Positions 3,383-56,299 of a stretch of DNA of 64,000 nt are shown in pieces. The notes beneath the pieces are model-generated. The model did no database searches, was not told the origin of the DNA, and saw only the letters and a list, made by a program, of their open reading frames with translations. The position numbers and the translations under genes are program-made. The stretch comes from a virus: the IMG/VR virus record IMGVR_UViG_3300009008_000005, positions 32,001-96,000 of that record, one strand, 5' to 3'. Within the stretch, counting starts at the first letter, position 1. Each line of letters starts with the position of its first letter.

Positions 3383-4311
3383 CAGGTCACCGTGATCTCT
3401 AGGGTTGCGTTCACAGTATTTACATGAGCACTTTGTTCCGGCGTAAGCAAGGCATAATCTGTGGGCATGAAATTTTCTGCAGTTACGTTAGTCGTCCCTG
3501 GAGCGATCCCGGTGATAGTAAACACGGTCCCGTCCATCAAGCCAGTAGCTACAGCATGGTCATCAGTGTCAGTAGCCACACAACCTGAGATATCATCCAT
3601 CACGGCCCACCCGTAGGTGTAAAGCTTCGGGTACAGCTCAATTGTCGCACCTGTGGCTACAGTCACCGTCTCCGTGAGAGATGTGTGCTCTGCGTCGGTG
3701 TAGAACTTCAGATGTCCTGGGACAGGGAAGATAACTGCCGGAAGATTCGCCCCTATAGTCTCAGGTGTGCGAACCTCCCAAGCCGTGTCCTGTAGGCCCG
3801 GGAACCATACGTGCACCAACATATCTCTGGGTAGATCGAGCTGGGCGTATCCATCAGAGTCCAGAACTACCTCCACGGACTTGTTAGATAGGCCGATGAT
3901 CTCATCATTACTCGCAAGAGCTACAGGCGAGTCCTTCTTGACGAAGTAGAACTTCATACCCTCCGGAGGTTCCCCAGATATTTCGGTGAAATACCCCGAG
4001 AGACGGGAATACCTAGCATCGTCGGAAGCAGGTTGCACCGGGCTGTAAACCGTGATCTCCACTACAGGGCTTTCTCCGACCCCGATGTTCACCTCAAACG
4101 TAGAGGGGAGACCAACGGTGGCCCCTAAGATTCCAGGAGCACAGCGCAGGTAATACGTACCTAGTGCTAGACCGATGAACTCCACCTCCCCAGTAGCCGC
4201 TGTGATCTGTGTAGACTGGTGAACCATAATAGATGAGTAGAGCTTTACGTAGGCGTTCTCTATGGGGTCTGACGCAACTGAGTCGAGAACCCTTACGATC
4301 ATATCAGGCAT
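3382..4311 (-). CDS. Virion protein with carboxypeptidase-regulatory-like/prealbumin-fold repeats and C-terminal Ig-like domain
   Basis: PIENAYVKLY...TGEVEF.GL..GTYYL and TITGIAPGTTNVTA motifs; shares domains with 7910-9451. Confidence 0.6.
   Translation of the reverse strand: MPDMIVRVLDSVASDPIENAYVKLYSSIMVHQSTQITAATGEVEFIGLALGTYYLRCAPGILGATVGLPSTFEVNIGVGESPVVEITVYSPVQPASDDARYSRLSGYFTEISGEPPEGMKFYFVKKDSPVALASNDEIIGLSNKSVEVVLDSDGYAQLDLPRDMLVHVWFPGLQDTAWEVRTPETIGANLPAVIFPVPGHLKFYTDAEHTSLTETVTVATGATIELYPKLYTYGWAVMDDISGCVATDTDDHAVATGLMDGTVFTITGIAPGTTNVTAENFMPTDYALLTPEQSAHVNTVNATLEITVT
3979..3993. repeat. Dispersed palindrome TATTTCGGTGAAATA (inside CDS)
   Basis: Read directly. Confidence 0.85.
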
Positions 4312-4314
4312 GGT

Positions 4315-6567
4315 CTAGCCTCCGTACAAGGCATCTAGCTCATTGTTCATCTTACTATCCGACTTGGGAATCCTACTAGTAGCAGGTCCCTTGCGGTTAT
4401 TTGCTGGGGCTGGAATGGCTCCGGGCGGATTACCACCACCTACTACAAACGAGCCTGACCTGGGAGCTGCCCCTGTGTCACGCTTGTTGTTCCACTCCAT
4501 GGCCTCGTTCTCTTCCCGGAAAGCTTCGGCTCTGAGCTTTCGCATAGCCCGGTCCCTATCAGACACTCCGGGACCTTCCGGAAGGGGCTTGGCATAACCT
4601 GGGAGTTCCACAGGCTCTTGTCGCTGCTGCTCCTGCCTGAGGCGGTCGGCCTCGTTCGGAGTCTGTGCCACAGGTTGTCCGGAGGAATCAGCCAAGACAG
4701 GTTTCGCTCTGTCACCACCCTGTGCTTCGTAGTAGTCCTCACCCGGGGCACGGCCTCCGGTACCTTCACCTATAAGCTTTGACCCCACTACCAGACCTCC
4801 CGCTGTGAGGAGACCAGCACCTATTAGTTTGGGCGCAGCGCCTAAGGCTCTGCTACCAGCAGCCGCCATGCGTCCACCAAGGCCAACAGCCTGTCCGCCT
4901 GGGGAAGGTACGGGCGGTGGGACATTACTTGGAGGTACATTCGGCGGGGGCTTGGCTGCACCACGGCCTATGTTAGCTGCAGGGTTCGCATTCGGTGAAG
5001 CTGTATCATCTACAAAGGTGGCAGTCCTAGGCTGCTTCTTGACTGGGGTTGTAGGTCTTGGGGGAGGATTCGCCGGGTCATACCGAGGAATCCTTGAACT
5101 CTGAGACGGTGGCGTAGCGCTAGGTGGGGGTGGGTTGTCAAAGATCGACTTGGGTGTTCCTTGTACAGGAGTCTTCGACGCAGGTACAGCTCCTGCAGGC
5201 TCCTTCTTAGTCGTCAAGCGCTGCCACATATTCGGTTCTTCCCTACCGTAGCGCTCCTTGTTGCTCCGCCTAATAGCCTCTTCAGAGGGGCCCTTAGACT
5301 TTGCGGGTTTAGTCTTCAGTTGCTTCTTCGTCAGATCTCTACTGACTGCTTCAACTTCTGCCCTTGCCTCTGCGGATAGAGGGACCTTACCTGAGCGATC
5401 CAGAGCTTTCCGCTCCGCTACTGCTTTGGCGATACCGTCAGCGTCAGGCTTTACTTTCGTCCCTGGACCAGGCGTTGGTTTTACGTGACTCGTACCCGAA
5501 CCTAAGTCCGCAGTGCTACTAGCGGCCGATGTTCCCTTGGGACTCTTCGTTGGGTTCGGGGCAGGTGCCCTAGGAACGCCACCTCCGCCACCTCCAGCTC
5601 CTACCCTTACGGGGACTGGGGGGCGCTTCATGGTCTCAGCACCACGTAAGGCATCGTCCCAAAGACCCTTAGCCTTACCCGCTACGTTCTTGACCGCCTG
5701 TACAGGGCTCGAAGATATACCGGATCTCGCAAGCCTAGATACGCCGGGGGCCACCACCATGGATGCGTCCAGAGCTTGCCCAGCTGTTGCACCCAGAGTG
5801 GCGGGCCTCTCCCTGAACTTCTTTACTTGATCGTCAGTTACATTAGGGTCGAGCGCCTGTGCAATCTCCGGAGCGGCGAAGAATGATCTGTCCTGGCCCT
5901 TGAAACCCGGATGGAATGTCCGCTCTTGTCCTGTACGCTTCAGCTTCGCTTTGTACGCCGTGTCCTGCTTAGTGTCGCCGAACTCCTTCTCTCGCATCGT
6001 ATTGACATAACCACCCGGGCCGTCCACGTTCATCCCAGTGGCCCGGATAGGAGCCGTTACAAAATCACGCACAAACTTCTTAGATCGCTTCGCACCCCGG
6101 TCCATAACACGATCGTGGGCTCCAGCTAAGCCGCCACCCTGCGAATGAGCGCTCTCATTGAAGCGCTTCGCACCGGCCCGATTACGTGCCCGCACACGCT
6201 TGAACTTGTCTGCAGCTCCCTGATATGCGCCCTGGACCTTAGACCCGAGATTTTTACCGAGAGCGACCTGCAATCCTGTGGCCTTGGGAGGGGGCGCTTT
6301 ATAGTCCAGCTTTGACTTGAATCCTTTTTGGTGCCAGGGCTGATTCAAAGGAGGGTTCACAGCCTTTGTTGAGTCCTTCGGCCCATAATCAGCTGTGACC
6401 GGGTCCTTGAACGTAGCTGTAGATGACCTTCCGCTGGGTGAGGGCAGTGTCCGCTGGAGCTTTGGATCGACCTTGGTCTTAGGTTTGGGTGCAGTCGTCT
6501 GCCCAAAACCTTTTAGCTGCGGGTCGAAGGCCAGCTTACGTAGGTGCTCCTCTAATCTCTGTCTCAT
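4315..6567 (-). CDS. Basic Pro/Gly/Ala/Lys-rich low-complexity protein with one hydrophobic Gly-rich segment (putative internal virion protein)
   Basis: 750-aa ORF; N-terminal KLAF motif; LIGAGLLTAGGLVVG segment. Confidence 0.6.
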   Translation of the reverse strand: MRQRLEEHLRKLAFDPQLKGFGQTTAPKPKTKVDPKLQRTLPSPSGRSSTATFKDPVTADYGPKDSTKAVNPPLNQPWHQKGFKSKLDYKAPPPKATGLQVALGKNLGSKVQGAYQGAADKFKRVRARNRAGAKRFNESAHSQGGGLAGAHDRVMDRGAKRSKKFVRDFVTAPIRATGMNVDGPGGYVNTMREKEFGDTKQDTAYKAKLKRTGQERTFHPGFKGQDRSFFAAPEIAQALDPNVTDDQVKKFRERPATLGATAGQALDASMVVAPGVSRLARSGISSSPVQAVKNVAGKAKGLWDDALRGAETMKRPPVPVRVGAGGGGGGVPRAPAPNPTKSPKGTSAASSTADLGSGTSHVKPTPGPGTKVKPDADGIAKAVAERKALDRSGKVPLSAEARAEVEAVSRDLTKKQLKTKPAKSKGPSEEAIRRSNKERYGREEPNMWQRLTTKKEPAGAVPASKTPVQGTPKSIFDNPPPPSATPPSQSSRIPRYDPANPPPRPTTPVKKQPRTATFVDDTASPNANPAANIGRGAAKPPPNVPPSNVPPPVPSPGGQAVGLGGRMAAAGSRALGAAPKLIGAGLLTAGGLVVGSKLIGEGTGGRAPGEDYYEAQGGDRAKPVLADSSGQPVAQTPNEADRLRQEQQRQEPVELPGYAKPLPEGPGVSDRDRAMRKLRAEAFREENEAMEWNNKRDTGAAPRSGSFVVGGGNPPGAIPAPANNRKGPATSRIPKSDSKMNNELDALYGG

Positions 6568-10493: not shown

Positions 10494-10961
10494 CTAGGCC
10501 CCCGGAATCTTCAGCTTGCGAAGACCTGAGTATATGCCATAGCGGAAGCCTGCTGTCTTCTCCATGTTCTCGAAGATCCCGTGCTTGACGGGGTTCTTGA
10601 ACCCCATCTTGTTTCCGAGCTTCCTGCTGCCTTTATTCGTGTGGACGTACTGCCACTTCCAGCGCTTCACTTCAGGGTGCTTCTTCATAAGGAAGGAAAC
10701 GGCTTTCTCACCAAGACCCTGCCTACGGTATTTCGGCGAAATACCTACGCCAACGAAAGCGGATTTGCTGGAATAAACCTTCTGCTTCTTGTAAGGCCTC
10801 GTAAGCTCTACGAAGCCCATCCACTTCCCTCCATCATATAACCCGTAACCCGTCCGGGCACCTTTAGGTGGGGCTGGGATCGTACCATGACCTGGGAAGT
10901 TTCCTGACTTTACCTTTAGGGCGGAAGCTTTCTTCCTGTCATAGGGGCCTATGCGAATCAC
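10494..10961 (-). CDS. GNAT-family acetyltransferase (start reassigned to GTG 10961)
   Basis: Motif A ISPKYRRQGLG and NKGSRKLGNKMGF; GGAGGA RBS before GTG 10961; the longer ORF would overlap a plus-strand gene. Confidence 0.8.
   Translation of the reverse strand: MIRIGPYDRKKASALKVKSGNFPGHGTIPAPPKGARTGYGLYDGGKWMGFVELTRPYKKQKVYSSKSAFVGVGISPKYRRQGLGEKAVSFLMKKHPEVKRWKWQYVHTNKGSRKLGNKMGFKNPVKHGIFENMEKTAGFRYGIYSGLRKLKIPGA
10729..10743. repeat. Dispersed palindrome TATTTCGGCGAAATA (inside GNAT CDS)
   Basis: Read directly. Confidence 0.85.
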
Positions 10962-11076
10962 GTAAAGTCCTCCGTTCTCAGGCTCTATTATGCAAAACAG
11001 TTCAGTGGGTTGTCCACAAAACTCCCAGACTTCCCGGTAGAAGAACTTCGGACCCATCCATACCAAGGAGGAAAGT

Positions 11077-11265
11077 ATGGAAGATTTCAAGATGCCGAAG
11101 AATGGCTTTGTGCTTGTAGTAACGCCGGAAGGTGTACGCACCAGCTGCCGTGGGCACCTGGGGCAGGCATGCAAAAGGAAGCTCCTAGGGAAGCATATTC
11201 CCAACTCCAGGGCCTTCTCCCATGAGGTGTCGAAGCGAGTCGACAACAGGAGCTTCAGGAAGTAG
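11077..11265 (+). CDS. Small basic hypothetical protein
   Basis: GGAGG RBS; 62-aa ORF. Confidence 0.55.
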   Translation: MEDFKMPKNGFVLVVTPEGVRTSCRGHLGQACKRKLLGKHIPNSRAFSHEVSKRVDNRSFRK

Positions 11266-12444: not shown

Positions 12445-14913
12445 CTAGATGGCATCCCCAAGGGCTTTGTCCACACCTGTAGTCTTGGCCATAGAACGTA
12501 TGGCACGGACTCTCTTGAATCTCTTTATCCGATCCATGAGGGTCTTCTTGGAGAGGAGGGGCTCCTTCCGTTTCTTTAGAGCTGAGTGCACGAAGGGGAT
12601 AGCCGCTGCGCCTGCGGCTGCGGGGAGCGTGTACTTACGGAGCTTCCGTAGGCCCTTGAGCTTCTTGGCTGCACCTCCAGCCGAAGCGAAGTCGACGACT
12701 TTACCCTTGGACTTTGACTTCAAGGATCTCTTGGCCAGGGCCTCTGCACCGAACTGTGCTCCTGCACCGGCCCCACCGATAGCTGCTCCCGTAGCGAGAT
12801 TTTTCTTGAGTGTTTTCTTCTGCTCGGGAGAGGCCTTACGGACCTTCTTCAGGACCTTCTTACCGCCCTTCACTCCCAGGTAACCACCGTACGAACCTGC
12901 CAGGGCCCCGCCCATGGCTCCAAGGGTGGCTCCGCCCACGGTAGGAATCTTTCCTTTCTTGGCCCTGTTCTCCATTACCTTCAAGGCGGTCAATGCACCT
13001 GCAAGGGAACCACCAGTGGCTCCGAACTGCTCACCAAGAGTCGGGTCTGGGGGGCTGGCGGCTGTCTTCTCTAGTGGGAGAAGGCGTGTGGGTCGCCTAC
13101 GAGACGGGTCAAAGTTGGAGAGGGCCTTATTCGACCAACTTTTGAAAGATGACCGGGGGACCAAAATTTCGTTTACCAAACCATCCCCACCACCGAGAAT
13201 CTTGTTCCTTGGAACATTGAATGAGAGAGTACCGCCCCCGGGACGTTGGCCGTATGGAGCGCTGTGGTGGAAAGCATACCCTTTCTTTGGGTTCGCCTCA
13301 AAGGCGTATAGACCGCCCTGGGCAGCACGAGTTTGTCCAGGAATTACATGCTGGGAAGTAAACCTGGTGCCCGGTGTAGATGTCCCAGCTAAACGCAGGT
13401 CTGAGGCTTCGCCACCAGAGACAACACGGACGGGCTCCTTAGAACGTGAGTACGAGCGAGCACTCGGACTGTAAGGACTACCAACCCCGGTGCCCTCTAA
13501 CTCCGGTACCTTCCCTGTTCTTTTCCACGTCTTGTAGGATTCAAGTCTTTGCTTCAACGGTACATAGGGATCGGATTTTGCGTTGACTCTTCTGGTGCGC
13601 CGAACCAGTTTTTTCAGCTTAGGTAAATCCCTCTCCGCTATTACCTTCTTAGCTTGGTGTTGCGTCATAGGGGACGGGGCAGACTTACGTAGCGTGGAGA
13701 CCAAACTGTCAAATAAGTTGAACGCAGCCCTGGGGGCCTTTGCTAGGGAAGCAATCTTGACCTTCTTCCCACGCTTCCGTCCATCATGGACCCAGCGCCA
13801 GAACTGGCCAATGTTCATCACAGAGTGGTCTTGGTAAAATCCTCGGCTGTTGTACTGCTTTCGGTAGGCTTTGAGCGCAGTCTGGACATCATTGAAGCCC
13901 AGCATGACCTTGTCTTCGTCATACTTTTTGGTCTTGGGGTCTTGCTGATGTACAACCACCACAAGGGGCGAATCTGCATTCTTCCCGACGTAGACGTCGA
14001 GCTTGTCCCCATCCTTGCCTTCCGTACCCCGGATCTCACCATAGTGGTGATGCATGAAGGTCTTCCAAGGTTTTCCATCAGGATCCTTTCCGGAGCGTGA
14101 GGAACCACGCTTGTTCTCAACGTCGATCTTCAGTCCTTGGAAATCTACGTAGCCCTGGAAGGGCCACTTCTTCCTCTTGGCTTTTGGCGGAGCAAGAGGC
14201 ACACGTGAGTTACCGGTGGGGACCTTCACAGCAGAGGACTCCTTCTTGAGGAGATTAGCCTTCAGGTCGCTCACTCCCTTCCCTACGAGTGCGGACCCCC
14301 CAGCAAGACCAGCTATGCCTGCACCGAACCTACCCGGCTTCCTCTTGATGTACTTCGGTAGGCCCTTGGCTAGTTCCTTCACGAGACCAAGGCGCTTACG
14401 ATGCTTCGACTTATGGATGTACTTAGGGTCGATAGTTTCCGTCGTAGTAGCTGCGATGTTCTTCCGGACCGACTTGGGAATATCATTAGGAGGTCTCATG
14501 TCCTGATCAAGCTTGAACTTTTCCCACCGGGAGTCCGGTATCGTAGCCGTTATGACTCTCTTATTTGCGGTGGGGTCAAAAGCCTTGAGCAAAGGGAGTT
14601 TGTCCGTAGATTTCTCCTTTTTGAGCTTTTCCGTCAGTCCAGCGAACATCCTAGCAAGGGTTTTGCTCTTGGTTACGTGGACTTTCCCCTTGCTCCTATC
14701 CTTGAAGTACTCGTCTATTGTGGCCGCTCCTGTACCGCCCTTGGCAGGGCTTAGACCCTCAGACAGGATAGAAGGAATGTTCTTACCATCACCCGTACCA
14801 TGATACACCTTGTGCGCCCCTACCGTACGTCGTAAGGACGACGGTAGGAGAGCCGCTCCTGTACCTAAGGCAACAGCGCTGCCTGGAAGGCCTAAACGAT
14901 CCCTCTCGGCCAT
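12445..14913 (-). CDS. Multidomain protein: ART-fold domain + inorganic-pyrophosphatase-like (InPase) domain + second ART-like domain + glycine zippers
   Basis: YHGT..SILSEGL..KVHVT..ARMFA..IDPKYI; GLKIDVEN..HYGEIRGTEGKDGDKLDVYVG..YDEDKVMLGF; GGLYAF..LSFNVP..NEILVP; GxxxG-rich C-terminus. Confidence 0.75.
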   Translation of the reverse strand: MAERDRLGLPGSAVALGTGAALLPSSLRRTVGAHKVYHGTGDGKNIPSILSEGLSPAKGGTGAATIDEYFKDRSKGKVHVTKSKTLARMFAGLTEKLKKEKSTDKLPLLKAFDPTANKRVITATIPDSRWEKFKLDQDMRPPNDIPKSVRKNIAATTTETIDPKYIHKSKHRKRLGLVKELAKGLPKYIKRKPGRFGAGIAGLAGGSALVGKGVSDLKANLLKKESSAVKVPTGNSRVPLAPPKAKRKKWPFQGYVDFQGLKIDVENKRGSSRSGKDPDGKPWKTFMHHHYGEIRGTEGKDGDKLDVYVGKNADSPLVVVVHQQDPKTKKYDEDKVMLGFNDVQTALKAYRKQYNSRGFYQDHSVMNIGQFWRWVHDGRKRGKKVKIASLAKAPRAAFNLFDSLVSTLRKSAPSPMTQHQAKKVIAERDLPKLKKLVRRTRRVNAKSDPYVPLKQRLESYKTWKRTGKVPELEGTGVGSPYSPSARSYSRSKEPVRVVSGGEASDLRLAGTSTPGTRFTSQHVIPGQTRAAQGGLYAFEANPKKGYAFHHSAPYGQRPGGGTLSFNVPRNKILGGGDGLVNEILVPRSSFKSWSNKALSNFDPSRRRPTRLLPLEKTAASPPDPTLGEQFGATGGSLAGALTALKVMENRAKKGKIPTVGGATLGAMGGALAGSYGGYLGVKGGKKVLKKVRKASPEQKKTLKKNLATGAAIGGAGAGAQFGAEALAKRSLKSKSKGKVVDFASAGGAAKKLKGLRKLRKYTLPAAAGAAAIPFVHSALKKRKEPLLSKKTLMDRIKRFKRVRAIRSMAKTTGVDKALGDAI

Positions 14914-15360: not shown

Positions 15361-16782
15361 TCACTTGATGTTCTTCTCCACATGCCAATCCGAGAAGCTC
15401 GCCTTCGACAAAGCCCCGGACTCGTACTGCTTCTCTGCAGTCACTCGGGCCACTAGACCCACATACCGCTTCTTATTCTGCCATAGATCTTCACGCAATG
15501 CATCATTCAGCCCTGTGCCTACCTTCCCCACAATAGGTCCATGACGGGTCAGGGAATAAGAGAATCCTCCTGCTGCCTTGCCTGCATATTTACCACCACC
15601 TGGGAAGATCTCCCGTACATAGACATCGTGCTCATACCTGAGCTTCGACTTCACAGGACCCTTATCTGTCCAGAGGACAACACCTTCTCTCGTAAGGGGG
15701 TGCTTCCCTGAACCGATGGAATCTAATAGCTTCGACTTGTCCTTCGGTGAGGTAGCTACAGGGGCAACACCTAGGACAGGGTATTTCGCTGAAATAGTAT
15801 GTAGAAGCTGCAGCCTTTCCTTATACGGTAACTTCGTAACATCGTGGCCATTGATCTTCACTGCGTCGAAAAGGAAGATCTTCGTCTTGGCCTTAGCCTC
15901 TGCTTGGATGTGGAGGCTGTTGATGACGGTAGCGTTCAACATACCTCCCACCTTCTCAGGAGGCAGAGGGACTCCGTCTGGACCTATGGCCAGAACCTCC
16001 CCACGGAGGATAGTTGGACCCTTCCCACCCTTGGCCTTCGTAGCGTATAAGTCCTTGATCTTGTGGGTATATTCTAAAAGGTCACCGGTCTTGGACTCCC
16101 TGGTGGAGAAGGCCCGTATCCGCTTCCCAGGTCGCATTAGGACAAGGGCATGCGCCCCATCGAGTTTGGCTCCGACGATGACGTCATCCCTGTTGACGAT
16201 CTCGTCACGCTGAGGTGTCTTCCACCCGATCTCCTTGTACTTCGGCCTGCCCCTAGGGGTTTCCTTCTTGGGGGCCGTCATGTTCACAAGGATCCAATTC
16301 TTCTTCCCTATATGGAGCAGTGCGAAGTCTTCCGTGCTCTTCCCACGGGTCACGGAGAACACGACCTTCTTCTCATCGGACGAATGTATGATGGCGTGGG
16401 AGTACTGCTTCAGGAATACCTTGCCTTGGCCGTACCCTGTCTCAAGCCTCCCCTCGAAGGGCATGTAGTCGTTCTTGTGCGTGAACGTCTGCATGACCAA
16501 TGTGCTCTTCCCTGGGGGAGGGAGAGTGAAGTCCTTCCCCTTCAGGGAGTGCCAGCTATGCGCCTTACCTGAAGGGTCACCCAAACGAAGGTCGAAGTGC
16601 TTCCCGGACTTCTTGGCATGGTGCTCCTGGAGCCCGAAAAGCCACACTTCTCCCCTCGCTGTCGGGATGGGGTGTGTGGTCTTGCTGTAGGGCCCTTCCT
16701 TTAGGTCACGGGTATGCGGCCGGACGTAGACGGTCTTGCCTTTGAGCTTCCGGCTATGCCCATCTACTTGTGTGCGGCCCAT
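15361..16782 (-). CDS. ATP-dependent DNA ligase with N-terminal LigD-type 3'-phosphoesterase domain
   Basis: PE motifs QEHHA..HFDLRL..SW..H..Y..FEG..GYGQG; ligase motifs KLDG, RGEV, FLFDAV, EGVV; OB domain GKVGTG. Confidence 0.88.
   Translation of the reverse strand: MGRTQVDGHSRKLKGKTVYVRPHTRDLKEGPYSKTTHPIPTARGEVWLFGLQEHHAKKSGKHFDLRLGDPSGKAHSWHSLKGKDFTLPPPGKSTLVMQTFTHKNDYMPFEGRLETGYGQGKVFLKQYSHAIIHSSDEKKVVFSVTRGKSTEDFALLHIGKKNWILVNMTAPKKETPRGRPKYKEIGWKTPQRDEIVNRDDVIVGAKLDGAHALVLMRPGKRIRAFSTRESKTGDLLEYTHKIKDLYATKAKGGKGPTILRGEVLAIGPDGVPLPPEKVGGMLNATVINSLHIQAEAKAKTKIFLFDAVKINGHDVTKLPYKERLQLLHTISAKYPVLGVAPVATSPKDKSKLLDSIGSGKHPLTREGVVLWTDKGPVKSKLRYEHDVYVREIFPGGGKYAGKAAGGFSYSLTRHGPIVGKVGTGLNDALREDLWQNKKRYVGLVARVTAEKQYESGALSKASFSDWHVEKNIK
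15782..15796. repeat. Dispersed palindrome TATTTCGCTGAAATA (inside ligase CDS)
   Basis: Read directly. Confidence 0.85.
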
Positions 16783-18700: not shown

Positions 18701-18715
18701 TATTTCGACGAAATA
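18701..18715. repeat. Dispersed palindrome TATTTCGACGAAATA (intergenic)
   Basis: Read directly. Confidence 0.85.
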
Positions 18716-28934: not shown

Positions 28935-28949
28935 CATTTCTTCGAAATA
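28935..28949. repeat. Degenerate palindrome CATTTCTTCGAAATA abutting a promoter
   Basis: Two mismatches to consensus; followed by CGGTATAAG. Confidence 0.6.
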
Positions 28950-31686: not shown

Positions 31687-31701
31687 TATTTCGGTGAAAT
31701 A
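31687..31701. repeat. Dispersed palindrome TATTTCGGTGAAATA
   Basis: Read directly. Confidence 0.85.
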
Positions 31702-34453: not shown

Positions 34454-34468
34454 TATTTCGGTGAAATA
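34454..34468. repeat. Dispersed palindrome TATTTCGGTGAAATA abutting a promoter
   Basis: Read directly. Confidence 0.85.
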
Positions 34469-37503: not shown

Positions 37504-37504
37504 T

Positions 37505-41119: not shown

Positions 41120-41134
41120 GACTACACCTCTCCT

Positions 41135-41158: not shown

Positions 41159-41170
41159 GCCACCACGTAT

Positions 41171-41288: not shown

Positions 41289-41289
41289 T

Positions 41290-41383: not shown

Positions 41384-41386
41384 AAG

Positions 41387-41460
41387 TAGGGTGAGTGGGA
41401 TTCGAACCCACGATCCTCGGATTAAAAGTCCGATGCCTTACCAGACTTGGCCACCACCCT
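41387..41460 (-). tRNA. trnK: tRNA-Lys(UUU)
   Basis: Cloverleaf; loop CTTTTAA. Confidence 0.95.
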
Positions 41461-41464
41461 GTAG

Positions 41465-41538
41465 AGCCGGGAAGGGGAATCGAACCCCTGACCTGCGGAT
41501 TACAAAACCACTGCTACTACCAACTGAGCTACCCCGGC
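41465..41538 (-). tRNA. trnT: tRNA-Thr(UGU)
   Basis: Cloverleaf; loop TTTGTAA. Confidence 0.92.
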
Positions 41539-41539
41539 A

Positions 41540-41631
41540 TGGAGGAGCAGGAGGGATTCGAACCCCCGGAAGATGCATGCACCTTCGGTGGCTTTCAAGG
41601 CCACTGCGATCAACCGCTCTGCCACTGCTCC
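41540..41631 (-). tRNA. trnS: tRNA-Ser(UGA)
   Basis: Long variable arm; loop CTTGAAA; CCA encoded. Confidence 0.95.
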
Positions 41632-41683
41632 GTAAGGTTCTCCCAGTAAGGTTCTACTATATAGGAAGAACCGGAACCATCAG

Positions 41684-41756
41684 AGCCCGAGGCGGGATTC
41701 GAACCCGCAACCCCCTGCTTACGACACAGGTGCACAGCCAGTTGTGCTTCTCGGGC
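41684..41756 (-). tRNA. trnT: tRNA-Thr(CGU)
   Basis: Cloverleaf; loop GTCGTAA. Confidence 0.88.
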
Positions 41757-41757
41757 A

Positions 41758-41832
41758 TGGGCCCTCAGGGATTCGAACCCTGGATCGACCGGTTATGAGC
41801 CGGTGGCTTTAACCAGACTAAGCTAAAGGCCC
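41758..41832 (-). tRNA. trnI: tRNA with CAU anticodon, Ile2 (lysidine) type
   Basis: Loop CTCATAA; GGGCC acceptor and TTAAAGC D-arm resemble Ile2; elongator Met not excluded. Confidence 0.8.
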
Positions 41833-41833
41833 T

Positions 41834-42562
41834 CTAGACTTCGAGTACCATATCATTCCTGAATCGCTCGTCAATGCGGTGCCTGTACCCTCTTGGGTTG
41901 CAGACCACCAGAGTGTCGTGAATCTCGTACTCTGCGTGGTCGTGCATGTGTCCATGGACCCAGACGTTCGGCTTCAACTCCCGGATCACGCCCTCCAGAG
42001 GTGTGAAATAGAAGGCGTTCATCTCGGAGAACTTGTACCAGGGCATGACGCTCTGCTCTGAAGGGGCGTGGTGTGTGATTACCACGTCACCCTGAGAGAC
42101 ATTCTGCTTCAGGAACTCGACCGCCTCCTTGTTCGCATCGAAGACCCAGGATGCGAAGCGCTCGATGAGGTGGAAGTCGGACATCCCCCGCTGGTTCACT
42201 GGTAGCTCTGCCTGATACGAGGGTGGGAACCATAAGGTCGTCCCGTGGAAAGTTGTACCTTCTAGAGTCACACTGGAATTCTGGAGCGGGTATATCTGGT
42301 CTCCCCACTTGTTCTTTAGCCACTCGAACTTCTCCGCTACAGCCTCCCTGGATGCATGATAGTGCTCGTGATTCCCGGCTACGAGTATGAGGCGATCCCA
42401 CTTCTTCAGGATCTCACGTATAGGGGCTCCCAGCTGGTAGCAGATGCTTAGGTCCCCGGCTGAGATGAGTGTAGGTGCGACCGGCACAATCTCGTTGAAC
42501 GCCTCCCTGCCGGGGGATTTGTAGAACTCGATATGGAGGTCGGATACAGGTTGTACTAACAT
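41834..42562 (-). CDS. Calcineurin-like metallophosphoesterase
   Basis: SDLHIE, AGDL, GNHEHY, ITHHAP, VHGHMH, CNPRGY motifs. Confidence 0.92.
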   Translation of the reverse strand: MLVQPVSDLHIEFYKSPGREAFNEIVPVAPTLISAGDLSICYQLGAPIREILKKWDRLILVAGNHEHYHASREAVAEKFEWLKNKWGDQIYPLQNSSVTLEGTTFHGTTLWFPPSYQAELPVNQRGMSDFHLIERFASWVFDANKEAVEFLKQNVSQGDVVITHHAPSEQSVMPWYKFSEMNAFYFTPLEGVIRELKPNVWVHGHMHDHAEYEIHDTLVVCNPRGYRHRIDERFRNDMVLEV

Positions 42563-42575
42563 GTGGCCTCCTTAG

Positions 42576-42648
42576 TAGGGTGGAGAGGACTCGAACCTCC
42601 AATCGCCGGATTAAGAGTCCGGTGCTGTTCCAGTTTAGCTACCACCCC
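42576..42648 (-). tRNA. trnK: tRNA-Lys(CUU)
   Basis: Cloverleaf; loop CTCTTAA. Confidence 0.95.
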
Positions 42649-42649
42649 A

Positions 42650-42741
42650 TGGAGGAGAGAAGGGGATTCGAACCCCTGGAGGACATCTCTGCCCTCAATG
42701 CCTTTCGAAGACACCGCAATAAACCACTCTGCCATCTCTCC
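42650..42741 (-). tRNA. trnS: tRNA-Ser(CGA)
   Basis: Long variable arm; loop TTCGAAA; CCA encoded. Confidence 0.93.
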
Positions 42742-42746
42742 ACTAG

Positions 42747-42819
42747 CAGGGGTACAGGGATTCGAACCCCGGACATCCGGCTCCAAAGGCCAGCGTTCTA
42801 CCAGCTGAACTATACCCCT
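42747..42819 (-). tRNA. trnQ: tRNA-Gln(UUG)
   Basis: Cloverleaf; loop CTTTGGA. Confidence 0.93.
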
Positions 42820-42833
42820 ATTTCGCCGAAATA
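42819..42833. repeat. Dispersed palindrome TATTTCGCCGAAATA between the two tRNA-Gln genes
   Basis: Read directly. Confidence 0.85.
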
Positions 42834-42837
42834 CTAG

Positions 42838-42908
42838 CTAGGGCGGTAGGACTCGAACCTACGATCCCGGGACCAGAACCCGGAGCCTTACCACTTGGCT
42901 ACGCCCCA
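42838..42908 (-). tRNA. trnQ: tRNA-Gln(CUG)
   Basis: Cloverleaf; loop TTCTGGT. Confidence 0.95.
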
Positions 42909-42914
42909 ATACAG

Positions 42915-42985
42915 AGCGGGTAGACGGACTCGAACCGACGTAACCAGCTTGGAAGGCTGGTGTCCTACCATTGGACGATACCCGC
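42915..42985 (-). tRNA. trnG: tRNA-Gly(UCC)
   Basis: Cloverleaf; loop CTTCCAA; U73. Confidence 0.95.
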
Positions 42986-42989
42986 ATAG

Positions 42990-43061
42990 TGACCCTGGGG
43001 GGAATCGAACCCCTCGTTACCGGGTTGAAAACCCGGCTTCCTACCATTGGAAGACAGGGCC
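42990..43061 (-). tRNA. trnE: tRNA-Glu(UUC)
   Basis: Cloverleaf; loop TTTTCAA. Confidence 0.95.
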
Positions 43062-43063
43062 GG

Positions 43064-43136
43064 AGAGCACGGTGGGCTACGATCCCACGATCTTCGGTTT
43101 TGCAGACCGACGTCTTACCAACTCGACCACGTGCTC
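43064..43136 (-). tRNA. trnC: tRNA-Cys(GCA)
   Basis: Loop CTGCAAA; U73; atypical T-loop ATCGTAG. Confidence 0.88.
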
Positions 43137-43140
43137 GCAG

Positions 43141-43212
43141 AGCCAGGACCGGGACTCGAACCCGGACTACCGCCATACCACAGCGGGGTACTACCATTGA
43201 TACGATCCCGGC
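43141..43212 (-). tRNA. trnT: tRNA-Thr(GGU)
   Basis: Stem CCGCT/GGCGG; loop GTGGTAT; G1-C72 and C2-G71 as in the other Thr genes. Confidence 0.82.
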
Positions 43213-43216
43213 GTAG

Positions 43217-43288
43217 AGCGGATGATGGGATTCGAACCCACAACGTCCTGCATGGCAAGCAGGGACTCTACCATTGAGCTACATCCGC
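43217..43288 (-). tRNA. trnG: tRNA-Gly(GCC)
   Basis: Cloverleaf; loop TTGCCAT. Confidence 0.95.
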
Positions 43289-43623
43289 TTATTCCACTCA
43301 TCCTCGAAGAAGTCTTCCACCCAGTCGTGGTAGTCCAACTTAGCCTCATCTTGCATGGTTTCATAGTAGGCTTCGGATCCTCTGCAGTAGGTGGAAGGAG
43401 TCTTCCTCTTTACTGACAGCCACTGCCATGCACCACAGTTCTGACACTGAGCTTCCTCTACATCCTTGGAGCCGATTACCTTCCCCTCCGAATTGTATTC
43501 GTACTTAGTGCCCCACTGATACTGTGGGAGATCCCCAGCCCCACAAAGGAGGCAGTTGTAATGGATTCCACGGGCCTCTACGGTTCCACCATGAACCGCC
43601 CAGCCGCCACCTTTAGTAGGCAT
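43279..43623 (-). CDS. Zn-ribbon hypothetical protein within the tRNA array
   Basis: AAAGGGGA RBS before ATG 43623; CLLC and CQNC motifs. Confidence 0.65.
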   Translation of the reverse strand: MPTKGGGWAVHGGTVEARGIHYNCLLCGAGDLPQYQWGTKYEYNSEGKVIGSKDVEEAQCQNCGAWQWLSVKRKTPSTYCRGSEAYYETMQDEAKLDYHDWVEDFFEDEWNKRM

Positions 43624-43657
43624 TAGGTCCCCCTTTAGAATACAGTAGCATATAGTA

Positions 43658-43732
43658 TGGTGGGGGTGGAGGGATTCGAACCCCCGTGTGTCGGCGTGTA
43701 AAACCGATGTCTTCCCACTTGACGACACCCCC
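43658..43732 (-). tRNA. trnV: tRNA-Val(UAC)
   Basis: Loop TTTACAC; CCA encoded. Confidence 0.93.
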
Positions 43733-43736
43733 ATAG

Positions 43737-43809
43737 TGGACCCTACCGGACTCGAACCGGTCACCTCCGCCGTGCAAAAGCGGCATTCTCCCAGATGAAC
43801 TAAGGGCCC
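43737..43809 (-). tRNA. trnA: tRNA-Ala(UGC)
   Basis: Loop TTTGCAC; G3:U70 pair. Confidence 0.95.
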
Positions 43810-43812
43810 ATA

Positions 43813-44100
43813 TTATTTTCTCTTCCTGCGCCGAGCCTCCCGCATCCTATCAGCGTTCGCCCTACGGCAGTCCTGGCATCTGCACCCATCACGACTGTAC
43901 CGACCATACTCGCCGTGAGCGTACTCTTTCTTCTTACGAGTAGTCCACCCAGCCAAAGCAGCATGTGACTCAGAACAGAAAAACCTCTCCTGGTCACGGG
44001 GACCGACATCGCAAAGGAGATGCAGAAAAAGGGTAACAAGGTTCGGAAGGGGGCAAGAAAGGGGGCAAGAGCGGAATCCTTTGTCAATACTCGTCCGCAT
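43813..44100 (-). CDS. Small Zn-binding protein with C-terminal HG..GRY..GCRCxxC motif
   Basis: C-terminal motif typical of phage HNH-associated proteins; start uncertain. Confidence 0.5.
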   Translation of the reverse strand: MRTSIDKGFRSCPLSCPLPNLVTLFLHLLCDVGPRDQERFFCSESHAALAGWTTRKKKEYAHGEYGRYSRDGCRCQDCRRANADRMREARRRKRK

Positions 44101-44117
44101 CCATTTGTGCTACATAG

Positions 44118-44193
44118 AGGAAGTGGTGGGATTTGAACCCACGACCTCAGGCTTCGGAGACCTGTGCTCTATTCCAAGCTGAGCTACACTTCC
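44118..44193 (-). tRNA. trnR: tRNA-Arg(CCG)
   Basis: Cloverleaf; loop CTCCGAA. Confidence 0.93.
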
Positions 44194-44195
44194 AA

Positions 44196-44274
44196 TGGTA
44201 GGAGTGGAGGGATTCGAACCCCCGACACCCGGCTCCGTAGACCGGTGCTCTGGTCCAGACTGAGCTACACTCCT
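44196..44274 (-). tRNA. trnR: tRNA-Arg(ACG)
   Basis: Loop CTACGGA; CCA encoded. Confidence 0.95.
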
Positions 44275-44312
44275 ATGCGGCGGGGTGCCTATCCAGACTA
44301 GACTACACCCTC
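44275..44312 (-). pseudogene. 5' half-tRNA fragment
   Basis: GAGGGTG-TA-GTCT-AGTCTGGAT-AGGC D-arm, then ends; no anticodon loop or T-arm. Confidence 0.7.
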
Positions 44313-44313
44313 G

Positions 44314-44391
44314 TGGTCGGAATGGCCGGATTCGAACCCACGATTTCCGCCTTGAGAGGGCGGCGTCCTAAGCCAGCTAGACTACAGGGCC
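44314..44391 (-). pseudogene. Chimeric tRNA: Glu(CUC) body fused at the T-loop to a foreign (Pro-like) 3' end
   Basis: 5' GGCCCTG cannot pair with 3' CATTCCG-ACCA; the mismatch begins right after TTCGAAT. Confidence 0.75.
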
Positions 44392-44395
44392 ATAG

Positions 44396-44468
44396 CACCC
44401 CCGACAGGACTCGAACCTGCATATCCCTGATTAGAAGTCAGGTGCCTGTCCAGTTAGACTACGGGGGT
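44396..44468 (-). tRNA. trnR: tRNA-Arg(UCU)
   Basis: Cloverleaf; loop CTTCTAA. Confidence 0.95.
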
Positions 44469-44469
44469 A

Positions 44470-44562
44470 TGGTGGGGAGAGAGGGATTCGAACCCCCAAT
44501 GTTCACTCATTAGAGAACGGATTTACAGTCCGTCGCAGAACCTCCATCTCTGCAGTCTCCCC
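44470..44562 (-). tRNA. trnY: tRNA-Tyr(GUA)
   Basis: Loop CTGTAAA; long variable region; CCA encoded. Confidence 0.9.
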
Positions 44563-44563
44563 T

Positions 44564-44641
44564 TGGTGCGCTAGGGAGGACTCGAACCTCCAACATCCGG
44601 CCTCTCAGACCGGCGACTCTACCAGATTGGCCTACTAGCGC
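44564..44641 (-). tRNA. trnL: tRNA-Leu(GAG), short variable loop
   Basis: Loop CTGAGAG; A73; 5-nt variable loop; CCA encoded. Confidence 0.88.
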
Positions 44642-44645
44642 ATGT

Positions 44646-44709
44646 GACATGGTGGTGGTGCTGGAGAACCCAGCTCCGGGAAATCCGAGGAAAAGGCCAC
44701 CACCATGTC
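44646..44709 (-). ncRNA. tRNA-like mini-RNA / 13-bp inverted repeat in a tRNA slot
   Basis: GACATGGTGGTGG/CCACCACCATGTC arms enclosing a GCTGG-GTTCT-CCAGC hairpin. Confidence 0.5.
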
Positions 44710-44712
44710 GAG

Positions 44713-44788
44713 TCCCCACGGAGGGATTCGAACCCCCAACATCTGGTTCCTGAAACCAGCGACTCTACCTAAGTTGGCCCACGTGGGG
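44713..44788 (-). tRNA. trnL: tRNA-Leu(CAG), short variable loop
   Basis: Loop TTCAGGA; A73; variable loop ATGTT. Confidence 0.88.
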
Positions 44789-44797
44789 AAAGAGCAG

Positions 44798-44871
44798 TAC
44801 CCGCAGTGGGACTCGAACCCACAACCTCTGGCTCCTAAAGCCAGCGCCTCTACCAGTTGGGCTACACGGGC
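44798..44871 (-). tRNA. trnL: tRNA-Leu(UAG), short variable loop
   Basis: Loop TTTAGGA; A73; variable loop AGGTT. Confidence 0.9.
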
Positions 44872-44875
44872 GTAG

Positions 44876-44949
44876 TACCTAGGGTGGGACTCGAACCCAC
44901 AACTTCCGGATTTTAAATCCGGCACCTCTACCAGTTGGGCTACCCAGGC
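44876..44949 (-). tRNA. trnL: tRNA-Leu(UAA), short variable loop
   Basis: Loop TTTAAAA; A73; variable loop AAGTT. Confidence 0.9.
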
Positions 44950-44953
44950 CTAG

Positions 44954-45028
44954 TAGCCACGGCGGGATTCGAACCCGCAACCTCTGGATTTTGAATCCAG
45001 CGCCTCTGCCGGATTGGGCTACGTGGCC
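44954..45028 (-). tRNA. trnL: tRNA-Leu(CAA), short variable loop
   Basis: Loop TTCAAAA; A73; variable loop AGGTT. Confidence 0.9.
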
Positions 45029-45029
45029 A

Positions 45030-45106
45030 TGGCAGGTGGACCGAGACTCGAACTCGGAATCGCCGGATTTGGAGTCCGGTGCCTTATCCAATTTGGCCAT
45101 CCACCC
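45030..45106 (-). tRNA. trnW: tRNA-Trp(CCA)
   Basis: Loop CTCCAAA; G73; CCA encoded. Confidence 0.95.
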
Positions 45107-45136
45107 TCATTCCATATCCTAGAATATGGAATTTCG

Positions 45137-45210
45137 CACCCCCGGCAGGATTCGAACCTGCGACTTACGGATTAGGAATCCGTCGCCCTATCCAGCTGGG
45201 CCACGGGGGT
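45137..45210 (-). tRNA. trnR: tRNA-Arg(CCU)
   Basis: Cloverleaf; loop TTCCTAA. Confidence 0.95.
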
Positions 45211-45246
45211 ATAGGGAACCTGATTGTCAAAGACCGACTTTCACAG

Positions 45247-45319
45247 CGGGCAAGGTGGGGCTCGAACCCACATACTTCCGGTTAACAGCCGGATGCTGAG
45301 CCTGTTCAGCTACTCACCC
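45247..45319 (-). tRNA. trnN: tRNA-Asn(GUU)
   Basis: Loop CTGTTAA; G73. Confidence 0.9.
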
Positions 45320-45323
45320 AAAG

Positions 45324-45404
45324 GGAAGTGGTCCGGCTTTGAACCGGAATCCCCGAGCTACCTTTCGGTGTTCGCCCGGTGCTCTAACCTTGAGCTACCA
45401 CTCC
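45324..45404 (-). ncRNA. tRNA-like RNA with anticodon loop replaced by a bulged stem capped by a GAAA tetraloop
   Basis: Normal acceptor, D- and T-arms; anticodon arm reads CCGGGC-GAAC-ACC-GAAA-GGT-A-GCTCGG. Confidence 0.75.
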
Positions 45405-45419
45405 ACATCCACTTCCCGG

Positions 45420-45492
45420 GGTGTGCGACGGGGATCGAACCCGCACCCTCCGGCACCACAAACCGGCGCTCTCCCACTTGAGCTTCGCACAC
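45420..45492 (-). tRNA. trnH: tRNA-His(GUG)
   Basis: Loop TTGTGGT; C73; base at -1 appears to be T. Confidence 0.9.
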
Positions 45493-45494
45493 AG

Positions 45495-45565
45495 CGAGGA
45501 TGACGGGACTCGAACCCGCTTTATCGGATAGACAGTCCGATGCCTTTCCTAATGGCTACATCCCC
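45495..45565 (-). tRNA. trnD: tRNA-Asp(GUC)
   Basis: Loop CTGTCTA (U37); G73. Confidence 0.9.
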
Positions 45566-45584
45566 AGAGGTCCTCAAAGAACAG

Positions 45585-45656
45585 TAGCGGGACCGGGATT
45601 TGAACCCGGATGTCCTGGGTTATGGGCCCAGTGAGTTACCAATACTCTACCCCGCT
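45585..45656 (-). tRNA. trnfM: Initiator-type tRNA-Met(CAU)
   Basis: Three consecutive G-C pairs closing the anticodon stem; loop CCCATAA; A1:U72. Confidence 0.85.
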
Positions 45657-45659
45657 ATA

Positions 45660-45751
45660 GACAGCACTGACTTACTTCTCCAGTCAGGTGAGGCCAGACG
45701 TTCGGCCAGTACTGTCAGGCTCCAGTACGTGCCCATGGGAGGCGTACTGGA
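45660..45751 (-). ncRNA. Structured RNA: hairpin plus anticodon-less tRNA-like three-way junction
   Basis: TCCAGTACG/CGTACTGGA hairpin; GACAGTA/TGCTGTC stem enclosing GGCC/GGCC and CTGACT/AGTCAG hairpins. Confidence 0.55.
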
Positions 45752-45755
45752 ACAG

Positions 45756-45829
45756 TGGACCCAGGCGGAATTGAACCGCCGACACCTCGGTCTTCAGCCG
45801 AGTGCTCTACCGAACTGAGCTACAGGTCC
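45756..45829 (-). tRNA. trnF: tRNA-Phe(GAA)
   Basis: Cloverleaf; loop CTGAAGA. Confidence 0.95.
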
Positions 45830-45830
45830 A

Positions 45831-46079
45831 TTACTTACGCATCAACTTCGGCTGCTCCTTCGGATCGAAGGACATCTTTCCGTCCTTATCGAAGCTCCAG
45901 ACATCCGATACCTCACGCATCTCCGGAAAGATCACATCTTCGTCCACCTCATAGGTAAGTTCTCCTAGTGCCTCCTTAACCTTGGAGCGAAGTTTTCTAT
46001 TTGCGAACCTCTTACCCTGCTTATCCGACGCCGCCTTGGTGATGCCGGTGATCGCTGTTTTCTGATAGGACCTACTCAT
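45831..46079 (-). CDS. Small basic conserved hypothetical protein (MSRSY.KT.I.G...)
   Basis: GGAGGT RBS; MSRSYQKT..KRFANRKLR..DVWSFDKDGK pattern recalled from phage and bacterial small proteins. Confidence 0.75.
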   Translation of the reverse strand: MSRSYQKTAITGITKAASDKQGKRFANRKLRSKVKEALGELTYEVDEDVIFPEMREVSDVWSFDKDGKMSFDPKEQPKLMRK

Positions 46080-46093
46080 ATGGACCTCCGAAG

Positions 46094-46167
46094 TTCCTGC
46101 GAGTGGATTTGAACCACTGACCTCTCGGTTATCAGCCAAGGGCTCTACCGGACTGAGCTACGCAGGA
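46094..46167 (-). tRNA. trnI: tRNA-Ile(GAU)
   Basis: Cloverleaf; loop CTGATAA. Confidence 0.93.
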
Positions 46168-50405: not shown

Positions 50406-50420
50406 TATTTCGGCGAAATA
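50406..50420. repeat. Dispersed palindrome TATTTCGGCGAAATA abutting a promoter
   Basis: Read directly. Confidence 0.85.
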
Positions 50421-50461
50421 CGGAATAAGAACTGTGGAGACAACCCACAAAGGAGCTTCCG

Positions 50462-50941
50462 ATGCCACCTGATGAATGGATAATGCGACCGACTGTAGCC
50501 TACCATCCTGCGGAGGAGCCGAGAGTCCGTGAGCGACGAACCTTCGCCGTACAGGCGAAGGAGGTGCTCGACGAATACTTCAAGACCCTCATCACGCCAC
50601 CTTCCCTTGACGACCTGAGCAGGCTGGAGAAGCTGCTGGAGGAGAGGCTCGGACTCCTCTGTAGCATCCAACAATCCAACATCTCCCTTGCTGACAACAG
50701 GATCTCCATGGCTGTGGTGCGCCGGGAGCGGGTCAGTATCTCCGACGAGCATATAACCCTCCGCATGGGTCGCACTCTCAATGAGGGGGAGGTCTCACTG
50801 GTCGTGAACACCAACGCAGGGGTGCGAGGGGCCTCTACCGAGGTCGGCTGGTGCCATAACTGCGACTCCCTGCCCTACAACTGTGGTTGCCGTGGTCAGC
50901 GCTTCTCCCCGAGGGAGACCGGTGTCGCAGCCACTGGGTAG
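50462..50941 (+). CDS. Hypothetical protein with C-terminal WCxxC..CxC Zn finger
   Basis: Palindrome + promoter + AGGAG RBS; GWCHNCDSLPYNCGC. Confidence 0.7.
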   Translation: MPPDEWIMRPTVAYHPAEEPRVRERRTFAVQAKEVLDEYFKTLITPPSLDDLSRLEKLLEERLGLLCSIQQSNISLADNRISMAVVRRERVSISDEHITLRMGRTLNEGEVSLVVNTNAGVRGASTEVGWCHNCDSLPYNCGCRGQRFSPRETGVAATG

Positions 50942-56012: not shown

Positions 56013-56270
56013 TTAGAGAAAGGGGTGGTAGTTGCTTCCGTAGTTGTTCCAGTACATCTCTTCCTCCATCTCCTCGATGGTCAGCATGTTGCTGCCAGGC
56101 TGGGAGGAAACAGACGTCGAGCCCGGACCCCAAGAGCGGAGGATCCGACCCCCTGACTCCACAGGAGCCTTGTCCTTGGCCACCGACCCCGGGAACTTCA
56201 TCTTCTCCTTGAGGGTCTCCAAGTCACCCTCGGTCAGAGTGTGTTTCACCGCACCGACGATTCCGCTCAT
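56013..56270 (-). CDS. Hypothetical protein
   Basis: AGGAGG RBS; terminator downstream. Confidence 0.6.
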   Translation of the reverse strand: MSGIVGAVKHTLTEGDLETLKEKMKFPGSVAKDKAPVESGGRILRSWGPGSTSVSSQPGSNMLTIEEMEEEMYWNNYGSNYHPFL

Positions 56271-56284
56271 CCCTTTCCTCCTGA

Positions 56285-56299
56285 TATTTCGTTGAAATA
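56285..56299. repeat. Dispersed palindrome TATTTCGTTGAAATA upstream of the lysin
   Basis: Read directly. Confidence 0.85.

Follow-up and report, generated by a model that had tools for sequence, protein, structure and literature searches.

The IMG/VR virus record IMGVR_UViG_3300009008_000005, a phage genome of 180,825 bp, carries a 15-bp palindrome, TATTTCR-N-YGAAATA, at 24 dispersed positions; we analysed the 64,000-nucleotide (nt) stretch that spans bases 32001-96000, hereafter the window, and followed the palindrome through the whole record (positions are those of the window unless given as genome positions). The palindrome is real and under selection at the DNA level, because 24 copies stand against none expected, with one arm spacing, invariant arms, use of all three reading frames and no shared flank. 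It is most likely a docking site for genome-wide control by a Noc/ParB/KorB-like protein of the phage, because its arms match the Noc site in sequence and the phage encodes one such protein.

Scanning the window with the pattern TATTTCGNYGAAATA returned nine exact matches, as compared with 0.00 matches in 100 dinucleotide-preserving shuffles, and allowing two mismatches added a single further match, CATTTCTTCGAAATA at 28935. An initial annotation made from the letters of the window had listed these nine positions and the degenerate copy and had judged the motif to be far above chance expectation; all ten are where it placed them, and the shuffles bear out its judgement. The genome-wide count that it proposed gave 24 exact copies of TATTTC-N3-GAAATA, at a mean distance of 7.4 kb and more evenly spaced than random (coefficient of variation 0.63 versus 0.94, P = 0.013). 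N3 is the sole arm spacing present in the genome among those tested from 0 to 8, with 0-2 and 4-8 absent, and the palindrome accounts for 24 of all 30 genomic TATTTC hexamers. Tolerating up to three mismatches genome-wide adds the 28935 copy and one probable chance match. Avoidance of the half-site outside the palindrome was not significant (18 copies, where hexamers of like composition have a median of 28).

The arms are invariant across the 24 copies, and variation is confined to the two central CpGs, where A replaces G7 or T replaces C9 in 10 copies. All of these departures are CpG-to-TpG or CpG-to-CpA transitions; a plus-strand T at position 9 predominates at 8-88 kb and at 172 kb, and an A at position 7 is found at 120-134 kb. 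The flanks show a weaker symmetric preference, R-G ... C-Y, giving the extended consensus RG-TATTTCR-N-YGAAATA-CY, and homology shared between the flanks of different copies ends about 2 bp out.

Rough gene calls put 92% of the genome in coding sequence and 8% outside it. About 15 of the 24 copies fall between genes and the other nine within well-supported ones, a count made after reassigning sites that fell in spurious small open reading frames (a post-stop site, the tRNA spacer and sites directly before promoter boxes); on the conservative assumption that 12% of the genome is non-coding, the intergenic enrichment has a binomial P of about 7e-9. Genes that hold copies include those for proteins of 1827, 878 and 672 amino acids (aa) and the gene for a 2078-aa RNA polymerase. 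Translation of the in-gene copies yields YFxEI four times, ISxKY four times and FRRN once; all three reading frames are used, and the palindrome is therefore not a protein motif. The initial annotation had placed three copies in coding sequence, and those at 3979, 10729 and 15782 do lie within real minus-strand genes; the copy at 31687 is intergenic by way of correction, because it begins 1 nt after a stop codon. The copy described as separating two tRNA genes, at 42819, lies between two tRNA-Gln genes and occupies the sole long spacer (17 nt) of a 37-gene tRNA array.

Many small genes of the phage are preceded, at 33-46 nt, by a promoter-like class of box, GGnATAAG(A/G)A, that has no -35 element and often directly follows a terminator-like hairpin. 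The abutment of three copies on such boxes holds at 34454 (3 nt), 50406 (1 nt) and the degenerate 28935 (1 nt). Five exact palindromes of the genome lie upstream of a GGnATAAG box, four of them at 1-4 bp (genome 66454, 82406, 113899 and 120052, with a second palindrome 27 bp from the copy at 113899) and the fifth, at genome 132283, at about 27 bp. Counting the degenerate one, six copies closely precede a predicted promoter element, either a GGnATAAG box (at 1-4 bp) or a sigma-70-like -35 element (at 4 bp), and four more abut ribosome-binding sites (genome 7924, 50701, 88285 and 148022). Further GGnATAAG boxes occur at window 61044, 61663 and 63275, at many more places genome-wide, and in relatives introduced below (L113 9938, L114 1429).

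The search for a ParB/Noc-like gene that had been suggested found one, encoding a 315-aa ParB/Noc/KorB-family protein at genome 134403-135350 on the plus strand (window-equivalent 102403-103350, 38 kb past the window end). It emerged from a Pfam scan of proteins near a ubiquitin-like gene block; a six-frame genome search with PF02195 (ParB_N) gave no match. In Pfam the protein scores 28.2 bits for HTH_ParB, above the cut-off, and 14.4 bits for ParB_N, below it, and the genome holds exactly one gene with a ParB-type helix-turn-helix (HTH). A phmmer search of the PDB aligned residues 14-217 with Thermus thermophilus Spo0J (1vz0, E 2e-8), with Noc (E 5e-5) and also with Helicobacter pylori ParB. 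An AlphaFold model of the protein (predicted local distance difference test score 86.6) had Noc 7ol9_B as its best Foldseek match (E 1.6e-9) and also matched complexes of ParB with cytidine triphosphate (CTP) and the KorB-KorA-DNA complex 8qa9_B. Sequence matches and model together point to an N-terminal ParB/Srx fold followed by a ParB-type HTH.

Box III (ENxxRxxL) is kept, EENIKRETLN aligning with ENLQREDLS, and E111 and N112 are invariant in 10 orthologs. The CTP-binding Box II (GERRxRA) reads GYLRHKA, in which Leu replaces the first Arg while Gly, Ala and the second Arg persist; most orthologs have G[YF]RR[HY]xA. A six-frame genome search for a ParA-type ATPase with PF13614 was negative, its controls being positive, which therefore argues against a partition system; the protein would instead control or organise the DNA of the phage. 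Immediately after the stop codon of the ParB-like gene begins the next gene, which encodes a classical AAA ATPase (PF00004, E 1e-21). This pair comes after a ubiquitin-like E2-JAB-E1 operon and is kept in relatives, where the syntenic order is small gene, ParB-like, AAA, Fer4_12, DUF1257, sheath; the AAA gene overlaps the ParB-like gene by 4 nt in L113 and carries an intein in L114. The small gene, of 94-98 aa, is conserved before the ParB-like gene in most relatives, and no recognisable fold or family was found for it. One palindrome, at genome 134044-134058, ends 4 bp upstream of the predicted TTGACC-16-TAGATT promoter of the operon formed by the small, ParB-like and AAA genes.

The Noc site reads TATTTCCC followed by GGGAAATA, and parS reads TGTTTCAC followed by GTGAAACA; the arm of the phage palindrome, TATTTC, is identical to bases 1-6 of the Noc half-site. 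ParB Arg173 reads guanine 1, and Noc has at the equivalent position a Gln that reads adenine 1 (PMC7383237). Gln149 of the phage protein aligns with Noc Gln158 and ParB Arg173 and is invariant in 10 orthologs; by this alignment, base 2 of the half-site (A) appears to match the recognition-helix residue (Gln).

A relative with a different site variant allows the comparison to be extended. L113/L343 (a 174-kb contig, Logan SRR33452761_87742; 46.6% G+C) has a syntenic ParB-like ortholog, 37% identical, and carries TATTTTG[C/G]CAAAATA (for example TATTTTGCCAAAATA) six times in 30.7 kb, five times between genes and once within a gene. This variant has the same 7-1-7 design as the phage palindrome and differs by one transition per arm, while the recognition helix reads KSQGYISSLIG in L113/L343 and VSQGYVARLIG in the phage protein; the Arg-to-Ser difference in the helix may go with the C:G-to-T:A change in the site. 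The in-gene copy of the relative (EYFAKI) aligns gap-free to EYFEDI in the phage, from which we conclude that sites arise through point changes rather than insertion. We accordingly rejected insertion of a mobile element as the source of the copies, which also have no common flank.

Other searches returned little. GenBank relatives found by tblastn with the RNA polymerase were only distant, near 30% identity; megablast of one window gene against a phage collection gave no match, and a search of IMG/VR with the RNA polymerase protein did not find a close relative. One ortholog of the ParB-like protein, P0002, is 76% identical (ENA ERZ24794666), and near-identical strains (99.9%) have the same sites and are uninformative. 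Among 85 loci of more distant phages, found via the AAA gene, none had a ParB-like gene and none had the motif. Searching IMG/VR for both motif variants gave single, chance-level matches per contig, save for a contig of 347 kb in which two copies lie 1.1 kb from each other; a metagenome scan with the ParB alignment A3 gave no match, and no repeated palindrome was found in the unrelated element of 63% G+C that encodes P0044, a protein with a similar helix.

Different repeats were seen in three other contigs. IMGVR_UViG_3300017598_001040 (L124 or G004; 28 kb, AAA protein 36% identical) carries another palindrome, TGCAAGCGCTTGCA, seven times, in most cases 5-10 nt before a ribosome-binding site; it is a 29%-complete fragment with no ParB-like gene. 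In a 124-kb relative, IMGVR_UViG_3300021420_000018 (G005), a distant ParB-like domain lies in a 519-aa open reading frame, and ACGCGT/CGCGTG palindromes are clustered within 200 bp, 20 kb from that frame (features at 42992-43183 and 63161-63655); the cluster could be an origin or a centromere-like array. A 36% G+C phage contig (L324, 13876-19950) holds 15 copies of AGGGGCTTAAGCCCCT with longer conserved flanks, a separate repeat family.

On balance, the resemblances in sequence, in the predicted structure and to characterised systems lead us to think that the palindrome is probably the binding or loading site of the phage's own ParB/Noc/KorB-family protein, working in a KorB-OB-like manner. 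A dimer of the 315-aa protein would dock on each of the 24 palindromes, with one HTH per TATTTC arm. Promoter-abutting copies would be operators, at which the bound protein occludes or modulates RNA polymerase as at promoter-proximal KorB OB sites, and an operator role fits the promoter-adjacent copies. Copies within the tRNA array and long genes would serve stretches without intergenic DNA, such that bound or sliding protein could reach the whole genome. Binding by the 315-aa protein, its sliding and its repression are steps that we infer. Of the proposal in the initial annotation, that the sites load a phage ParB/Noc-like protein that organises or tethers the genome, the loading part has gained a protein of the right family with the Gln match, a palindrome at that protein's own operon and the variant of the relative; tethering is unsupported, ParA is missing, and the spacing is N3 and not N4.

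Several observations weigh against this assignment. The Noc specificity residues K179, K184 and R201 are L, N and Q in the phage protein, which means that both permissive lysines, 179 and 184, are absent, and base 6 differs from the Noc site, being G or A instead of C. Of six DNA-contact residues conserved in ParB and Noc, the protein keeps only two, Ser172 and, by conservative exchange to Lys, Arg204; it has N in place of Gly170 and V in place of Lys171, although most orthologs retain GKSQ. The half-sites are separated by N3 in a 15-bp element, in contrast to N4 in the 16-bp parS and NBS (Noc-binding site), and none of the 24 copies has the N4 spacing of that class. CTP-dependent sliding by this protein is doubtful from its sequence, because Box II is degenerate and the first Arg of GERR is lost. 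In the relative L113, the upstream region of the ortholog itself holds no copy, and site positions differ between the phage and L113/L343; in L114/L115, whose ortholog has the helix SQSDISAM, no repeated palindrome was found in 21 kb. The co-occurrence of site and protein rests on two genomes and is confounded with their relatedness.

The main rival, which we regard as a credible if tentative alternative, is that the palindrome is the operator of another dimeric transcription factor of the phage, the candidates being the two XRE-type HTH proteins in the window, which the initial annotation had already named as possible binders, or an unrecognised regulator, with the intragenic copies being extra sites or decoys. 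XRE-type repressors typically bind short promoter-overlapping palindromes, the two XRE genes are 0.9-1.7 kb away from the copies at 28935 (degenerate) and 31687, and six copies abut promoter-like boxes. Nothing links the XRE proteins to the palindrome sequence, however, and nine perfectly conserved, evenly spaced intragenic sites are seldom seen in classical repressor regulons; this explanation would also make the match to the Noc half-site and the matching Gln coincidental. We think it improbable that the palindrome serves a polymerase (as promoter, pause site or terminator for the phage RNA polymerase) or a host factor (as the site of a host ParB/Noc-like protein). The phage does have its own 2078-aa polymerase and the arms do equal the Noc half-site, but the distance and orientation of copies relative to gene starts are variable and nine copies lie deep in long genes, including the polymerase gene itself; for a host factor, the 15-bp geometry is unlike NBS or parS, and the phage's own family member could serve.

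It is quite improbable that the palindrome acts as RNA, its transcripts folding into a hairpin of 6-9 bp with a 3-nt loop that signals processing, stability or translation in mRNAs and the tRNA precursor. Such an element would account for the copies directly before ribosome-binding sites (those listed above and, in the relative, L113 17091 and L343 8097) and for the copy between two tRNAs, and a palindrome gives the same hairpin in transcripts from either strand. The hairpins, however, are predicted to be weak (-2.6 to -6.3 kcal/mol), and compensatory changes between the arms are absent within a genome, suggesting that sequence rather than shape is read; moreover, the six copies upstream of a promoter-like box are probably outside its transcript, and the variation at the central CpGs leaves the predicted hairpin loop unconstrained. 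Least credible to us is a site for a DNA transaction such as nicking, replication initiation, recombination, packaging or sequence-specific base modification. The regular genome-wide dispersal and the restriction of all variation to CpG transitions would agree with it, as would a 677-aa protein of the window that joins a QueC-like segment to a family-2 glycosyltransferase segment and hints at 7-deazaguanine or sugar modification of DNA. C5 and N4/N6 methyltransferases and Tet/JBP dioxygenases were looked for in the phage and not found, no candidate enzyme is tied to the motif, and palindromic symmetry and promoter adjacency are unexpected for nick or packaging sites.

The genome as a whole is 99% complete by CheckV, has 55.5% G+C and is myovirus-like, with homologs of tail sheath and baseplate proteins; its RNA polymerase is a single-chain fused beta/beta' protein. 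The window copies and the other features are collected in Table 1.

Table 1. Window copies of the palindrome and other features of the phage (window coordinates unless marked; boxes are GGnATAAG boxes)
Feature	Position	Strand	Context
Palindrome TATTTCGGTGAAATA	3979..3993		Within minus-strand gene 3382-4311 (309 aa); coding strand reads Y-F-T-E-I
Palindrome TATTTCGGCGAAATA	10729..10743		Within minus-strand gene 10494-11174; frame I-S-P-K-Y
Palindrome TATTTCGCTGAAATA	15782..15796		Within minus-strand gene 15361-16647
Palindrome TATTTCGACGAAATA	18701..18715		Intergenic; stop codon 12 nt before, start codon 17 nt after; adjoins ribosome-binding site
Degenerate copy CATTTCTTCGAAATA	28935..28949		Box GGTATAAG (28951-28958) 1 nt downstream, then gene 28988-29302
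Palindrome TATTTCGGTGAAATA	31687..31701		1 nt past stop of plus-strand gene 31362-31685; convergent genes either side
Palindrome TATTTCGGTGAAATA	34454..34468		Box GGAATAAG (34472-34479) 3 nt downstream; gene 34517-34939
Palindrome TATTTCGCCGAAATA	42819..42833		Spacer between tRNA-Gln(ttg) 42746-42819 and tRNA-Gln(ctg) 42837-42908
Palindrome TATTTCGGCGAAATA	50406..50420		Box GGAATAAG (50422-50429) 1 nt downstream; gene 50462-50941
Palindrome TATTTCGTTGAAATA	56285..56299		Divergent intergenic region between genes 56013-56270 (minus) and 56358-57395 (plus; peptidoglycan-binding domain); on the minus strand, between GGTATAAG (56334-56341; 34 nt away) and the ribosome-binding site of gene 56013-56270
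tRNA array, 37 genes	35053-46167	minus	Mostly 1-5 nt between genes
XRE-type HTH gene	29833-30492	plus	HTH_3, 25.6 bits (above cut-off)
XRE-type HTH gene	30584-30997	plus	HTH_3, 19.5 bits
822-aa protein	12445-14913	minus	Domain common to minor head proteins and DarB-like/endolysin-annotated giant proteins
428-aa protein	15361-16647	minus	Weak match to ATP-dependent DNA ligase
677-aa protein	31840-33873	minus	QueC-like segment joined to family-2 glycosyltransferase segment
ParB-like and AAA gene pair	genome 134403-136988 (window-equivalent 102403-104988)	plus	Kept in relatives: L113 10001-12603, L114 10001-13568

ParB-family CTP switches are known in chromosome and plasmid partition, in nucleoid occlusion (Noc) and in the control of plasmid and virulence genes (KorB, VirB, BisD). 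Our literature search found no description of a ParA-less phage with a canonical ParB and dozens of genome-wide Noc-like sites. If the link between protein and site holds, the two would form a simple, testable pair with a natural specificity variant (TATTTCG versus TATTTTG; helix VAR versus ISS), the odd-spaced site would extend the known parS/NBS code, and there would be a handle on how large phages that encode an RNA polymerase time and organise their genomes. A bolder extension, which we consider speculative and rather unlikely, is that a virulent-type large phage with its own RNA polymerase coats or marks its whole chromosome with a ParB/Noc-like protein that acts without ParA and loads at sites maintained at intervals of about 7 kb, essential genes included; this could serve to silence the genome at a set time, to build a compartment for phage DNA, or to recruit the closely linked AAA ATPase and the neighbouring ubiquitin-like conjugation genes. 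If true, this would show the ParB switch used in a new way, by a virus.

Among characterised systems, the chromosomal and plasmid ParABS partition systems, including those of the plasmid-prophages P1 and N15, likewise bring together, on a mobile replicon, palindromic sites and a ParB-family protein, and in N15 four SopB sites are dispersed among phage genes. The phage differs in having no ParA/SopA ATPase and in having 24 sites, compared with 1-10, that are not clustered at an origin, and signs of a plasmid lifestyle were not seen in the parts of it that we examined. Stoperators of cluster A mycobacteriophages, dozens of copies of a short repressor site in and between genes genome-wide that silence transcription, share with our palindrome the spread of one short site over a phage genome. 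They are asymmetric 13-mers oriented with transcription and bound by the monomeric immunity repressor of a temperate phage, whereas the site described here is palindromic and has a ParB-family protein as its candidate binder. Phages commonly encode ParB-fold proteins (PMC12704722), and some phage ParB proteins activate thymine dioxygenases and have no DNA-binding domain (PMC13229309), unlike the 315-aa protein, which has one.

The sites of Noc in Bacillus subtilis number roughly 70. They resemble the phage palindrome in the TATTTC arm, the adenine-reading Gln, the dispersal of sites, many of them in genes, and the lack of a ParA partner (PMC7383237). The differences are that NBS has 16 bp with 4 bp between TTTC and GAAA, where the phage site has 15 bp and 3 bp; that Noc Lys179, Lys184 and Arg201 are replaced, as described above, in a protein of 22-24% identity; and that the N-terminal amphipathic membrane helix of Noc is not evident in the phage protein.

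KorB is a ParB-family CTP clamp whose OB operator, TTTTAGC-G-GCTAAAA, is a 7-1-7 palindrome; 12 OB sites are dispersed over the 60-kb plasmid RK2 (PMC13768133), and some of them lie 4-10 bp upstream of a target promoter, others at distances that reach beyond 1 kb (PMC11790492). The phage differs from this plasmid replicon in having its own RNA polymerase, no IncC/ParA partner, a degenerate Box II, no identified KorA/TrbA-like partner that would lock the clamp, no identified second operator of the kind that such a partner occupies over the -10 element (no search was aimed at one), and a protein nearer in sequence to Spo0J/Noc than to KorB. What the two systems share is a ParB-family protein with an N-terminal nucleotide-binding fold and an HTH, an odd 7-1-7 operator, a comparable site density (about one per 5 kb on RK2 versus one per 7.4 kb in the phage) and a dispersed layout in which some copies lie a few bp upstream of promoters, here predicted ones, and others are distal or intragenic.

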